A stretch of DNA of 64,000 nt, from the NCBI GenBank assembly GCA_965659735.1, contig CBFHXH010000008.1:74-64073 (forward strand), in the 5' to 3' direction. Numbering within the stretch: position 1 is the first letter of the stretch; the number at the start of each line of letters is the position of its first letter. Both the position numbers and the translations under genes were made by a program. This DNA is from an uncultured Pikeienuella sp. GTDB taxonomy: Bacteria; Pseudomonadota; Alphaproteobacteria; Rhodobacterales; Rhodobacteraceae. Positions 58,879-64,000 of this stretch are shown in pieces. The notes beneath the pieces are model-generated. The model saw nothing but the letters and a program-made list of their open reading frames with translations. It did no database searches and was not told the DNA's origin.

Positions 58879-59298
58879 ATGCAGCCCACCGACCCAACAG
58901 ACCTGATCCGCGCGACTTGGGCGCAAGCCGCCGCCGCGCAAGCCGACATGGCGCGGCTATTCTATGGACGGCTTTTTACCATCGCGCCCGAAACCAGGAA
59001 ACTGTTCAAGACCGACATGGAACAGCAAGGCCGCAAGCTGGTCGAGACGTTGGGCTTTGTGATCGACAACCTGACCAACCCGGATGCGCTAAAGCCCGCG
59101 GCCGAGGATCTGGCTGTGCGTCATCTGAACTACGAAGTCGAAAAGAATCACTACGCTGCTGTTTCGCAATCGCTGCTCTGGACGCTGGAGGAGCTTTTGG
59201 GCGGCGCCTACACGCCTGAGGCGGCCAAGGCGTGGACCGATGTTCTGGCGGTGCTGGAAAAGATCATGACCGACGCTGCTTATCCCGCCGAGGGTTGA
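58879..59298 (+). CDS. Single-domain bacterial globin (flavohemoglobin/Vgb-type globin domain)
   Basis: FY (TyrB10), APETRKLF (PheCD1), QQGRKL (GlnE7), LAVRH (HisF8), HYAAV and AW motifs; AAGGAG RBS. Confidence 0.9.
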   Translation: MQPTDPTDLIRATWAQAAAAQADMARLFYGRLFTIAPETRKLFKTDMEQQGRKLVETLGFVIDNLTNPDALKPAAEDLAVRHLNYEVEKNHYAAVSQSLLWTLEELLGGAYTPEAAKAWTDVLAVLEKIMTDAAYPAEG

Positions 59299-59308
59299 AC
59301 TGACCCAA

Positions 59309-59326
59309 ACTATACCAAAGGATAGT
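59309..59326. promoter_or_regulatory. 18-bp inverted repeat upstream of the FIST gene (candidate LuxR/NarL-type site)
   Basis: ACTAT-accaaagg-ATAGT. Confidence 0.4.
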
Positions 59327-59401
59327 CAACCTACTCCTAATGATGAAAGCCAGCTCAAGCGTTGATGCCTAAAATTTGTATTAGATTCGATAGGCAACGA
59401 C

Positions 59402-60583: not shown

Positions 60584-60602
60584 GACTGCGACGGAAGAAG
60601 AC

Positions 60603-63395
60603 ATGGCGGATGACGAGGCGCTTCGCGAAGCGCTGATAGAATTGGACGCGCTGCGCCAGCGAGAGACTGTAGCGCTGCGCGAATCCAATGCGCTGGTCAG
60701 CTGCCTGTCCGCCGTCGCGACCTCCGCCACGCCGGAAGCGGCGTTGTCCTCGTTGTTGGACGCCATCCGGAACACGGTCAGCGCCTCCGTCGTCGCCATC
60801 ATTCGCCAAGGCGATGGCGCGGGCGAAGTCGTTATATCATCCGCGCCTGAACTCGTCGGCCTGCCAGCGCCTGTAGCGCTGATGAAGGGGGTCAAACCCC
60901 GCCGGATCGTATCACTGGCCGACGTCGCATGGTGGCCCACCAGCGATGACTGGCCAGCAATGGGATCCGCACTGGCCGCGCCTGTGAAACTGGACGACGC
61001 CAAGGGCGCGCTGGTTTGCCTGTCGGATCAACCGGACATGTTCAGCGCCGCCGATGCGCGCATCCTCCCCCGTCTGGCCGAGGTCGCCGTTCAGGCGTTG
61101 GCGACGCTGGAACTGTCGCACCGCAACGCCTTTTTGGCGGGTGTCATCGACAATTCCGCAGTCAGTGTTTCGGTCGCCGACCTGCGCGTGGACGGCACGC
61201 CGCTGATCTATGTGAACGACGCCTTTACAACTCTCAGCGGCTATACCCGCGATGATGTTCTGGGCCGCAACTGCCGCTTTCTGTCGGCGGAATCAAAGAA
61301 CAGCGAAGTACGCACCACGCTTCGAACCGCGGTGGCTGAGGTCAGGGCGGGCGAGTTTGAGCTACGCAACCGGCGCAAGGATGGTGCGCAATTCTGGAAC
61401 CGCCTGTCCCTATACCCCATCGACGGCGAAGATGGCGAACCGCGATACCTGGTCGCCACGCAAGTCGACATTACCGCAGAAAAGACCGCTGAAGCGGCGC
61501 GCGAAATGGCCAGCAAGCGCCTCAGATCCGCGCTTTCCACCACATCCGAAGGGTTTCTGTTGCTGAACCCAAACGGGCGCATCGTATTCGCCAACACCCG
61601 CTACCGCGACTTCTTTGAAACTGCATCCGGCGCCTGGGATGACGGCGCCGATTTTGTTGAGGCGTGGGCGGCGCGCCTGCGCGACCTTGGCGAGGACGCA
61701 GACAACGCGCTGCAAGGCGCGCTCGCCTATCGCGACAGCCTGTTCGCCGGCGCGAAAGACCAGGAAGTCGTTCTGCCAGACGGACGGGTCATGCTGATCA
61801 ACAACCGCTTGACTGCCGAAGGCGGCGCAGTGTCCATCGCAACCAACATAACCAGCCTGAAGGCGACGGAACGCGTTTTGGCCCAGCGCGCCGCTGCCAT
61901 CGACGCCAGCCAGGACGGCATCGCCGTCGCCGATGGCGAAGGCCGGCTGCTATACGCCAACGCCAGCTATCTGGCGATGTACGGCTATGATCATCAGTAC
62001 GAATTGCTGGGCAAATCATGGCGTGCAGCCTTTGCCAAAGACCAGTGGAACCGCATCCAGCGCGAGGCGATCCCGGCCCTTGAGAAGAAGGGCGCTTGGC
62101 GCGCCGAAATGCCGGGCATATCAAAAACGGGGGATGTCGTCCTGCAGGAGTTTTCGGTTACCTACGCCGAGGGTATAGGCATCGTTTGCATTGCCCGTGA
62201 TATGCGTCAGCGCCACAAAGCGCGAACCGAACGCGCACGTCTGGTCGAACAACTGCAAGCCGCTCAGCGGCAGGAAGCGATTGGCCAGCTTGCCGCTGGG
62301 GTTGCGCATGATTTCAACAACGTGCTGTCCGCCATCAACGGCTCTGCCGCGCTGATCGAGACCGATCTTGAACGTGGCAAGCCAGTCAGCGCCCATGTTG
62401 AACGCATTGCGCAGGCAGGAGATCAGGCGAAAGGGCTGATCAAACGGCTGTTGGACTTTGGCGCTCGGCGGTCATCTAAATCACAGACCGATTTGGGTGA
62501 TAGCGTGGCTGAGGCTGTCGACCTCCTCCGTTCTGGCGTGCCACAAGGAATAGATCTAACGTTCACCCTGCCAGAAGTGCCCATTATGGCGTCCGCCGAT
62601 CCGACCGACCTGATTCAGATCATCCTAAACCTTGGCATCAACGCCCGCGATGCAATGGTCGATTGCGCGGGGAAAATCACAATATCGCTCGGCATGATGG
62701 ATACGCCGCCAAAAACCGCGCAAGTCGGCGTCATCGATCCCGCCAAGGCCTATGCATTGATCACTGTGTCCGACACGGGCGCGGGCATGACGACGGATCA
62801 GGTTGAAAATATCTTTCAGGCGTATTTTTCGACCAAGGGTGACAAAGGCACGGGCCTTGGCCTTTCGATCGTATCGACCATTATGCGCGGGCTTGGGGGG
62901 GCGATATCCGTCACCTCCGCCTTGGGCGATGGGACGACTTTTCATGTCTATTACCCAATTGAAGCAACCGATCTGGCACGGCCTGCCAAACGCAATAATC
63001 CAACTGCAAACGCAGACCTTCAAGGGTGTTTAATCCTGATCTGCGACGATAACATTGGCGTCGCCGAAACCCATGCCGCCATTTTGGAAAGCGCAGGTGC
63101 GGAAACCGCCGTTGTCGAAGACCCACGCGATGCGCTGGACGCACTTAGAGAAGATCCTGACGCCTGGGATGCGCTGCTGACAGATTTCGACATGCCGCAC
63201 ATGAATGGGGCCGAACTGGCAAGTGCGGTGCGTGATGCGCGGGCCGATTTGCCGATCGTACTTTGTACAACCCATAACCTTCGTCGCCGTTCTAGCACCA
63301 TATTCGACGCCGAATTAGGGAAGCCAGTCGAGTCATCAGCCTTGATTTTAGCGCTTGAGACAGCGATCAACATAACAGTCGATGTTCCTCAGTGA
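60603..63395 (+). CDS. Hybrid sensor histidine kinase: GAF-like - LOV - PAS - PAS - HisKA - HATPase - REC
   Basis: LOV motif GRNCRFLS; H-box [24 protein letters not shown] and GTGLGL boxes; receiver CDDN...TDFDMP...KP. ATG 60603 (the ORF track opens at GTG 60564). Confidence 0.92.
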   Translation: [930 protein letters not shown]

Positions 63396-63410
63396 CTGAA
63401 AGAACCTTTT

Positions 63411-64000
63411 ATGCGGATTCTCATAGCTGATGACCACGAATTGGTGCGGGATACGATCTCCGCATTTCTGGAACGCGAAGGTGGGTTTGAGGTCACCTCA
63501 ACCGACGATTATTTCAAGGCCACAAAGATCATCACCGAAAAAGGACCCTTCGATTTAGTGCTACTGGATTATTCCATGCCAGGCATGGTCGGTTTAAGTA
63601 CGCTTGAAGTTGCGCGGGAGCGAAATAGTGGCAAACCCGTCGCACTGATATCAGGCGCGGCAGACAAAGGTGTTGCGCAGGAAGCTTTGGCCGCTGGGGC
63701 TGCCGGGTTCTTGCCGAAATCGATGGCTGCTAAATCACTGATAAGTGCGGTTAAATTTATGATTATGGGGGAGCAATACGCTCCAATTGATTTTATGACG
63801 GCTGAGGAGCCTAAAGATGAAAATCCCCTTAAATCTTTACTATCAGAGCGAGAAATTCAGGTTTTGGAAGGGCTTTGCAAAGGTAAGTCTAACAAGGAAA
63901 TTGCTCGCGACTTAACCCTACAGGAAGTCACAATCAAACTGCATGTCAAAACTCTATGCCGCAAGTTGTCTGCAAAAAACCGTACCCAAGCTGCTATTAT
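63411..64000 (+). CDS. NarL/LuxR-family response regulator (runs off the window end)
   Basis: Not in the ORF track. MRILIADDHELVRD...LLDYSMPG...LSEREIQVLEGLCKGKSNKEIARDLTLQEVTIKLHVKTLCRKL. Confidence 0.93.
   Translation, partial: MRILIADDHELVRDTISAFLEREGGFEVTSTDDYFKATKIITEKGPFDLVLLDYSMPGMVGLSTLEVARERNSGKPVALISGAADKGVAQEALAAGAAGFLPKSMAAKSLISAVKFMIMGEQYAPIDFMTAEEPKDENPLKSLLSEREIQVLEGLCKGKSNKEIARDLTLQEVTIKLHVKTLCRKLSAKNRTQAAI

Follow-up and report, generated by a model that had tools for sequence, protein, structure and literature searches.

Can one bacterial histidine kinase take in both light and a chemical signal, and if so, what would the second signal be and what would the kinase control? 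The question is raised by the end of a 64,000-nucleotide (nt) stretch of DNA (the window) from an uncultured Pikeienuella sp. of the Rhodobacteraceae (GenBank assembly GCA_965659735.1, contig CBFHXH010000008.1). Here, the open reading frame (ORF) translations of 58879-64000 reveal a globin, a FIST protein, a hybrid histidine kinase containing a LOV domain and a LuxR-type response regulator, all on the same strand and closely spaced. A first-pass annotation made from the letters alone had proposed that the kinase receives light through its LOV domain and nitric oxide (NO) through a NosP-type FIST protein. The two-input part of this proposal, light plus an accessory-protein input, is sustained by the intact LOV residues and the conserved FIST linkage, but the NosP/NO identity of the second input is not, given the score of the FIST protein against the NosP model. 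We conclude that the cassette probably lets light and a second signal, possibly gas or redox, control surface attachment. Its parts are of known kinds; neither their conserved combination nor a sister architecture bearing an H-NOX gene was described in the literature searched, which covered NosP with LOV and FIST with LOV and a histidine kinase.

The LOV region of the kinase matched 154 solved LOV chains in a phmmer search of the PDB, the best being PpSB1-LOV of Pseudomonas putida (E 1.3e-24), with Erythrobacter EL346, YtvA and phototropin LOV1/2 among the further matches. It scored 122.7 bits with the YtvA-family model and 99.6 bits with the LOV-HK model of NCBIfam, both being partial matches under the full-length cutoffs. 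The adduct-forming Cys224 is encoded at 61272-61274 within the motif GRNCRFLS (translation of 61257-61292). Both phosphate-binding Arg residues (R225 and R241), both Asn residues (one of them in FWN) and the terminal Gln (ATQVD) of the set contacting flavin mononucleotide (FMN) are kept, the sole change being Ser for the Gln of NCRFLQ; translation and PDB alignment thus agree with the first-pass reading of these residues. The canonical Gln contacts the ribityl/pyrimidine edge of FMN, and its replacement by Ser may tune flavin binding or the photocycle. In about 98 full-length kinase homologs (35-75% identity), which share the start MADDEAL with our 930-aa kinase, the motif NCR(F/L)LS(A/D)E(P) is near-universal, the canonical N-C being missing in two, and the position of the Gln is occupied by Ser, Ala, Thr or Asn throughout the family. 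Because these residues are maintained together with the Cys across the family, the Ser is, judged from this pattern, a subfamily signature and not a sign of decay. A check on whether homologs lose the Cys found it kept family-wide, including 56 of the 59 short-kinase loci having a LOV domain. Taken together, the LOV domain is a credible predicted blue-light sensor. On the minus strand of another contig (C16:41589-42047), the same genome encodes a further LOV protein, some 150 aa long; this one is of the short type, Dinoroseobacter/Rhodobacter-like, with the fully canonical GRNCRFLQG, so that the organism has two distinct LOV photoreceptors.

The remainder of the kinase is that of a soluble hybrid enzyme. 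Pfam matches comprised PAS_9 (106 bits, residues 197-292), PAS_7, PAS_4, HisKA (31.4 bits), HATPase_c (68.0 bits) and Response_reg (52.5 bits), with a slightly sub-threshold GAF_2 match at residues 42-166, and both the H-box AHDFNN and the receiver motifs LICDDN...LLTDFDMP...VLCT...KP are legible in the translation. Every Pfam domain named in the first-pass annotation of the four co-oriented genes was recovered.

The association of these genes extends well beyond this contig. Scanning for relatives of the FIST protein, with one genome per species, yielded 314 stretches, of which the best 80 (46-72% identity) were taken with their flanks and joined by three loci from contig look-ups to give a set of 83 loci. 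With FIST present in all 83, ORF clustering counted 75 loci with the kinase, 66 with the regulator and 42 with the globin; truncated contigs account for many of the gaps. The FIST gene lies immediately upstream of the kinase gene in most of the 83 loci, on the same strand and with a median gap of 19 nt, and the kinase and regulator genes overlap by 4 nt in some. The carriers belong for the most part to the Rhodobacterales, chiefly marine ones (Jannaschia, Algirhabdus, Rhodovulum, Gymnodinialimonas, Planktomarina, Marinovum, Nioella, Cognatiyoonia and Pikeienuella), with further ones among the Ahrensiaceae/Tepidamorphaceae and among metagenome-assembled genomes (MAGs) of Kiloniellales and Rhodospirillales. 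A reverse test starting from four distant kinase homologs on long contigs gave FIST directly upstream and the regulator downstream in three of them; the exception was Albimonas donghaensis (L096, FNMZ01000001.1, 5416-10412), in which a globin is followed by a 1265-aa LOV kinase and a LuxR regulator with no FIST gene between. The arrangement, found in more than 60 independent genomes, is far beyond chance juxtaposition. The neighbourhood check suggested in the first-pass annotation therefore shows FIST retained beside the kinase, a breadth on which that annotation was silent, as it was on the adjoining polysaccharide and RTX genes described below. Among the records collected, one titled 'Oceanobacillus sp. 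HTM 045' (Bacillota; L019, WNWL01000003.1) carries a typical alphaproteobacterial cassette with 52% FIST identity and is probably mislabelled or contaminated, and one labelled Polyangiaceae (L072) forms a long branch and has no kinase.

The identity of the FIST protein decides how much can be said of NO. Pfam FIST (81.3 bits) and FIST_C (86.1 bits) cover residues 30-373 of its 393 residues. Against the NosP equivalog NF041558 it scored 32.6 bits by hmmscan and 23.9 bits in the genome search, compared to a cutoff of 450. The same model exceeded its cutoff (460-600 bits) in 19 of 301 sampled Pseudomonadota genomes, and in that sample NosP-like proteins at 360-400 bits occurred in five genomes of the window's own taxonomic family. 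The candidate identity as a true NosP ortholog, which the first-pass annotation had assumed, is ruled out by these 24-33 bits and by the presence of a separate NosP-like lineage in the same family; for the same two reasons, heme/NO binding is not transferable by orthology. The two groups are nevertheless homologous: aligning a profile of 71 members of the FIST subfamily with a profile of six true NosP proteins by hhalign gave 97.3% probability and 25% identity over 318 columns, and both share GGSA(A/G)D, a CxxC/CxC pair, (F/Y)GEQ and a C-terminal H-x-N. On this profile evidence, the FIST protein is a remote NosP paralog. A Cys/His/Asp/Glu set is strongly conserved within the subfamily. The FIST family was reportedly first proposed, by Borziak and Zhulin in 2007, to bind small ligands. 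An AlphaFold2 model of the protein (pLDDT 93.7, pTM 0.90) has the FIST domains of eukaryotic FBXO22 as its only clear fold relatives in the PDB, with weak Toblerone-fold matches ranking below them; a search of the PDB by sequence for a solved FIST or NosP structure gave none at E<=1, and no NosP structure was found by fold search either. Published NosP proteins bind their partner kinase and control its autophosphorylation (PMC12570481, PMC8846402). By analogy, the FIST protein is presumed to be an accessory sensor or modulator of the kinase, and heme/NO sensing by it would likewise follow from the analogy with NosP only.

Variant architectures indicate which parts of the module are exchangeable. 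In 14 of the loci FIST is followed by a kinase of about 1320 aa with the order GAF-GAF, LOV-like PAS, PAS_7, PAS, HisKA, HATPase and REC; its LOV-like PAS domain keeps the xFLQ frame, but the Cys is absent (GRNASFLQ, GRNPTFLQ and similar). The idea that FIST had been fused into such kinases, of about 1317 aa, was ruled out, as the added length corresponds to GAF domains. An H-NOX gene (Pfam HNOB, 123 bits) separates FIST from the kinase in six of the 14 long-kinase loci, and none of the 14 has a globin; an operon of FIST, H-NOX and kinase was not found in the literature searched. In the FIST phylogeny, the long-kinase loci form one clade (support 100/97) nested among the lineages with the LOV Cys, and a second nested clade (100/93) unites five loci whose short kinases lost the Cys or LOV altogether. 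The LOV-Cys state thus appears ancestral within the FIST/kinase subfamily, while the constant core consists of FIST, the PAS_7-PAS-HisKA-HATPase-REC part of the kinase and the LuxR-type regulator. A heme gas-sensor protein seems to have been recruited to this module twice, in two unrelated folds, globin and H-NOX. The swap supports a heme-based gas input, and the recurrence of heme proteins of two folds is the best indirect evidence that the module may handle an O2/NO-type signal.

The globin (Pfam Globin, 66.9 bits) has the 'hemoglobin-like flavoprotein' globins 3wfw and 3s1i as its best PDB matches (E 6e-27). Alignment with these placed a pocket of the flavohemoglobin (FHb)/Vitreoscilla type, with Phe-B9, Tyr-B10, Phe-CD1, Gln-E7, Leu-E11, His-F8 and Tyr-G5, and 73 cassette globins show little or no variation at these positions. 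The nearest homologs, in a search of 5.8 billion proteins, share their contigs with the cassette, and all three further globin contigs inspected carry either the same cassette or a form interrupted by polysaccharide genes. Downstream of the regulator on one related contig, which carries globin P0245, transposase genes (rve, IS66) follow directly. The 42 globin loci of the 83 always have the short (about 930-aa) kinase type, nearly all with the LOV Cys. Since H-NOX substitutes for the globin in the sister clade, the globin may equally well be a sensor partner as an NO/O2 effector.

The regulator, with Response_reg (84.2 bits) and GerE (65.9 bits) domains in Pfam, falls below all NCBIfam equivalog cutoffs, the top one being ErdR (110.8 bits versus a cutoff of 390), and belongs to no named ortholog group. 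The kinase has no histidine phosphotransfer (Hpt) domain in Pfam, and a crude Hpt motif scan of the genome returned spurious ORFs only and no credible Hpt, being uninformative as a scan. A VirA-like model of NCBIfam matched across the kinase core and receiver with 268 bits. In VirA, the receiver is regulatory and phosphotransfer to VirG is direct. Because of this match and the tight linkage of the regulator, we prefer, with moderate confidence, a direct transfer from the kinase to the adjacent regulator, in which the kinase's own receiver would, like that of VirA-type kinases, act as a regulatory sink; alternatively, the phosphate may be relayed via an Hpt protein encoded elsewhere. In a single case, a Rhodospirillales MAG (L097, 9564-10268), an NnrU-family gene lies straight after the regulator. 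The NnrU family is associated with the NO-responsive NnrR regulon.

The genes around the cassette offer a clue to its output. A large RTX protein (HemolysinCabind and DUF6923) is encoded convergently to the regulator in 25 loci, and beyond it, in longer loci, lie genes for a UDP-glucose/GDP-mannose dehydrogenase (Ugd), a ManC-type enzyme and a glycosyltransferase of family GT2. A WecG-Bac_transf priming transferase, mostly with GalU, is encoded divergently upstream in 20 loci, and a GNVR/Wzz-like protein and a Wzy-like membrane protein are encoded downstream in 13. In all, polysaccharide or RTX genes lie within 6 kb in about 48 of the 83 loci. LOV kinases govern attachment and exopolysaccharide in Caulobacter and Rhizobium (PMC9980756), and NosP and H-NOX systems control biofilm (PMC8846402, PMC4436077). 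As such genes adjoin the cassette and as LOV, NosP and H-NOX systems elsewhere control attachment or biofilm, its output is, by analogy, most likely the control of a surface polysaccharide or adhesin.

The layout of the cassette in the window and its variants is summarised in the table below. Direct reading of the junctions placed the last base of the FIST TAA at 60583 and the kinase ATG at 60603, and the end of the kinase TGA at 63395 and the regulator ATG at 63411, in agreement with the spacings of 20 and 16 nt given by the first-pass annotation. An AAGGAG ribosome binding site precedes the globin ATG, and scanning 58300-64000 for promoters and terminators gave nothing exceeding shuffle expectation, with none of the four genes separated from the next by a terminator. 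A truncated receiver-domain ORF (MTKKLNFILVEGDRDRALMIVDGLQ...) on the minus strand at 58448-58693 has its stop just upstream of the globin promoter region. The stop codon of the regulator lies 25 nt past the window end, and the contig (C8) ends 171 nt past that stop. In the stretch from 63950-64000 of the window on to 64196 of C8, the last 76 nt, beginning about 95 nt past the regulator stop, are shared with the ends of at least nine further contigs in the assembly; this contig-end repeat is probably an insertion sequence terminus, inserted right after the cassette. An adjoining contig with RTX, Ugd and ManC genes was sought in the same genome, but the multicopy repeat at the contig end allows no unique join, and RTX-like matches elsewhere in the genome, considered as the missing neighbours, turned out to be generic repeat matches.

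Table. Positions of the cassette genes and domains in the window, and of H-NOX genes in related loci
Feature	Position	Strand	Remarks
Single-domain globin	58879-59298 (ORF opening 58876/58879)	+	139 aa from ATG; Pfam Globin
Stand-alone FIST_N + FIST_C protein	59402-60583	+	393 aa; Pfam
Cytoplasmic multi-sensor hybrid histidine kinase	60603-63395	+	930 aa; Pfam
LOV domain of the kinase	61134-61478	+	residues 178-292; phmmer against the PDB
Kinase domains (residues)	GAF-like 42-166; LOV 178-292; PAS_7 313-423; PAS 434-538; HisKA 561-620; HATPase_c 666-786; REC 811-897		
NarL/LuxR-type response regulator (REC + GerE helix-turn-helix)	63411-64000, running past the window end	+	204 aa
H-NOX loci	L045:7086-7739; L071:1587-2150; L049; L050; L074; L038		Pseudotabrizicola, Cypionkella, Meridianimarinicoccus, Aliishimia

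Combining these observations, we propose a scheme in which the soluble hybrid kinase would be the hub of the cassette. Its LOV domain would bind FMN and, under blue light, form a Cys224-flavin adduct that alters autophosphorylation. The FIST protein, presumably co-transcribed, would bind the kinase and add a second input, as NosP does on NahK/NosK, with heme or heme-NO as a candidate ligand by analogy only. The kinase would pass phosphate to the adjoining NarL/LuxR-type regulator, which may control the neighbouring surface-polysaccharide and RTX-adhesin genes and thereby attachment or biofilm. The Tyr-B10/Gln-E7 globin may supply or shape an O2/NO-related signal, either as heme sensor partner or as NO consumer. 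Of this scheme, the domain content, the intact pocket residues of LOV and globin, the conserved order of the genes and their genomic association with polysaccharide/RTX genes are observed, whereas we infer all protein-protein contacts, all ligands and the regulon of the cassette. As a whole, from light and FIST input to the LOV kinase, through the LuxR-type regulator, to surface-gene output with a globin-linked O2/NO signal, this is the reading we favour, with somewhat more than even confidence.

Several points weigh against this reading. Flavin binding could be changed or weakened by the Ser at the FMN-contacting Gln position. Hybrid kinases that lack an Hpt domain commonly depend on an Hpt protein of their own, and direct phosphorylation of the adjacent regulator may therefore not take place (PMC4436077). 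The FIST protein is distant from NosP (24-33 bits versus 450), little is known of how NO or heme is bound by FIST domains (PMC8846402), and the only solved FIST fold, that of FBXO22, serves in protein recognition and does not belong to a heme protein. About 20 loci have divergently oriented polysaccharide genes between globin and FIST, so that the globin is not always co-transcribed, and about a third of the LOV-type loci with adequate flanks have no globin. In the genome of the window itself, what lies upstream has no relation to polysaccharide synthesis, and the downstream context is lost to the contig-end repeat.

How, then, is the second input best explained? A true NO pathway of the NosP/NahK type combined with light, with a heme-bound FIST protein whose ferrous-nitrosyl form inhibits the kinase and a globin that resets the system as NO dioxygenase, seems unlikely to us. 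Indeed, the Tyr-B10/Gln-E7 pocket of the cassette globin is typical of NO-dioxygenating globins, the homology with NosP includes common core motifs with two Cys and the C-terminal His, and H-NOX, a bona fide NO sensor, partners the module in the sister clade. The layout, a stand-alone FIST gene with a soluble hybrid kinase and a regulator, is also that of published systems (PMC8846402, PMC12570481), and roseobacters use NO for biofilm control (PMC4436077). However, the score of 24-33 bits against 450, with NosP-like proteins (360-400 bits) as a separate lineage in the same family, argues against such a pathway; the literature searched defines no heme-ligating residues of NosP with which conservation could be compared. 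Moreover, a heme-binding FIST protein would be redundant if H-NOX or the globin already senses the gas, and the cassette provides no reductase to partner the single-domain globin. The exchange of globin and H-NOX around the module suggests that the heme protein, and not FIST, may be the gas sensor. FIST would then be a ligand-free adaptor or scaffold linking this heme protein to the kinase, or the sensor of an unrelated small metabolite, for example a sugar precursor or an amino acid, which we consider possible though somewhat unlikely. This would fit the constancy of FIST while the fold of the heme protein differs between clades, the nature of FBXO22, the nearest solved FIST structure, as a protein-protein recognition module, and the best PDB match of the globin, 3wfw, the globin domain of a named globin-Roadblock/LC7 fusion that we take to be signalling-related. 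It fits less well with the many loci that have FIST and kinase with neither globin nor H-NOX within their flanks, with Albimonas, in which globin and kinase occur without FIST so that the globin is not strictly FIST-dependent, and with the conserved Cys/His/Asp/Glu set of FIST, which looks like a ligand or cofactor site and not like a bare scaffold.

A broader version would make the kinase a hitherto undescribed three-input integrator, with light through LOV, gas or redox through globin or H-NOX and a third ligand through FIST as the member of a new subfamily, where FIST docks the heme protein onto the kinase and the system provides day/night, NO/O2-dependent control of polysaccharide and RTX adhesin in algae-living marine roseobacters; we regard this as distinctly unlikely. 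If true, the globin would be a trans-acting sensor for a histidine kinase and the FIST fold would gain a defined adaptor function. We know of no stand-alone globin for which such a trans-acting role has been shown. At the other extreme, the linkage may be merely genomic, the kinase and regulator being a plain light two-component system, with FIST and globin as syntenic bystanders, or the LOV domain may be a redox sensor. LOV kinases do act without accessory proteins in Brucella, Caulobacter and Erythrobacter (PMC8092228; PDB entries), Caulobacter LovK integrates redox and light, judging by an entry in the reference list of PMC9980756, and the sequence identities of the cassette proteins are correlated from locus to locus, which simple co-inheritance would predict. 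Against this, the same-strand FIST-kinase gap with its median of 19 nt persists across lineages as far apart as Rhodobacterales, Hyphomicrobiales, Kiloniellales and Rhodospirillales despite different flanking genes, and FIST stays with the kinase even when the sensor region of the latter is exchanged. As synteny alone rarely survives that much rearrangement, we judge this explanation very unlikely, and return to light and a FIST-borne accessory input acting on one kinase as the preferred reading.

The cassette shares features with several characterised systems. In the NosP-NahK/NosK systems (Pseudomonas aeruginosa PA1975/PA1976, Legionella pneumophila NosP-NahK-NarR, Burkholderia pseudomallei NosP-NosK-NosR and Vibrio cholerae NosP-VpsS), a stand-alone FIST_N and FIST_C gene likewise lies beside a soluble receiver-bearing kinase and a response regulator; these systems are linked to biofilm or surface behaviour, and their FIST proteins are homologous to that of the cassette (97% by hhalign). 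However, while no sensor domain is recognised in B. pseudomallei NosK (PMC12570481), the cassette kinase carries LOV, GAF-like and PAS domains. The regulator of the cassette is a LuxR/NarL DNA-binding protein where that of the NosP systems is a cyclic di-GMP enzyme, and the cassette has a linked globin and a FIST protein that is only a remote paralog. The LOV histidine kinases (Brucella LOV-HK, Caulobacter LovK-LovR, Erythrobacter EL346/EL368, Rhizobium leguminosarum R-LOV-HK and Pseudomonas syringae LOV-HK) share with the cassette kinase an adduct-Cys LOV domain ahead of HisKA/HATPase, the fused receiver being common to it and the P. syringae type, and their known outputs include attachment and exopolysaccharide (PMC9980756, PMC3684834). 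In the cassette kinase, by comparison, the LOV domain is internal, between the GAF-like and two more PAS domains, with the signature NCRFLS in place of NCRFLQ, and, unlike known LOV kinases, it has a dedicated FIST gene, a linked globin and a LuxR-type regulator immediately downstream. The H-NOX/hybrid kinase systems (Silicibacter sp. TrichCH4B SiliH-NOX-SiliHK-Hpt-DGC and Shewanella HnoX-HnoK) place a separate heme sensor beside a soluble hybrid kinase controlling biofilm, a likeness strengthened by the H-NOX gene of the sister clade; the cassette differs in having a globin as heme protein, FIST interposed, light as an added input and no Hpt or diguanylate cyclase. As for the globin itself, Vitreoscilla hemoglobin and the 'hemoglobin-like flavoprotein' globins (3s1i/3ubc, which we believe to be the Methylacidiphilum Hell's Gate globins, and 3wfw) have the same fold and Tyr-B10/Gln-E7/His-F8 pocket. 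Among such single-domain globins of the FHb lineage, the cassette globin differs in its genomic tie to two-component genes and not to respiration or detoxification genes, and it has no fused reductase or Roadblock domain, unlike 3wfw, by its name a fusion of globin and Roadblock/LC7.

LOV kinases and FIST/NosP-kinase pairs, studied separately so far, are joined here in one conserved putative operon with a heme protein, in at least about 80 genomes, making the cassette a tractable system for how one kinase integrates light and a chemical signal. Culturable carriers include Jannaschia marina, Algirhabdus cladophorae, Rhodovulum adriaticum, Gymnodinialimonas mytili and Ahrensia marina. The globin and LOV form versus the H-NOX form with a Cys-less LOV domain amounts to a natural experiment on sensor swapping around a constant FIST-kinase-regulator core, for which Albimonas donghaensis, with its naturally FIST-less cassette, is a useful comparison. 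The cassette also makes it possible to test which ligands are bound by FIST domains of non-NosP lineage, and cautions that not every kinase-linked FIST protein should be annotated as NosP. For the roseobacters, in which the control of attachment polysaccharides is poorly understood (PMC9980756), it is a candidate regulator of these polysaccharides.

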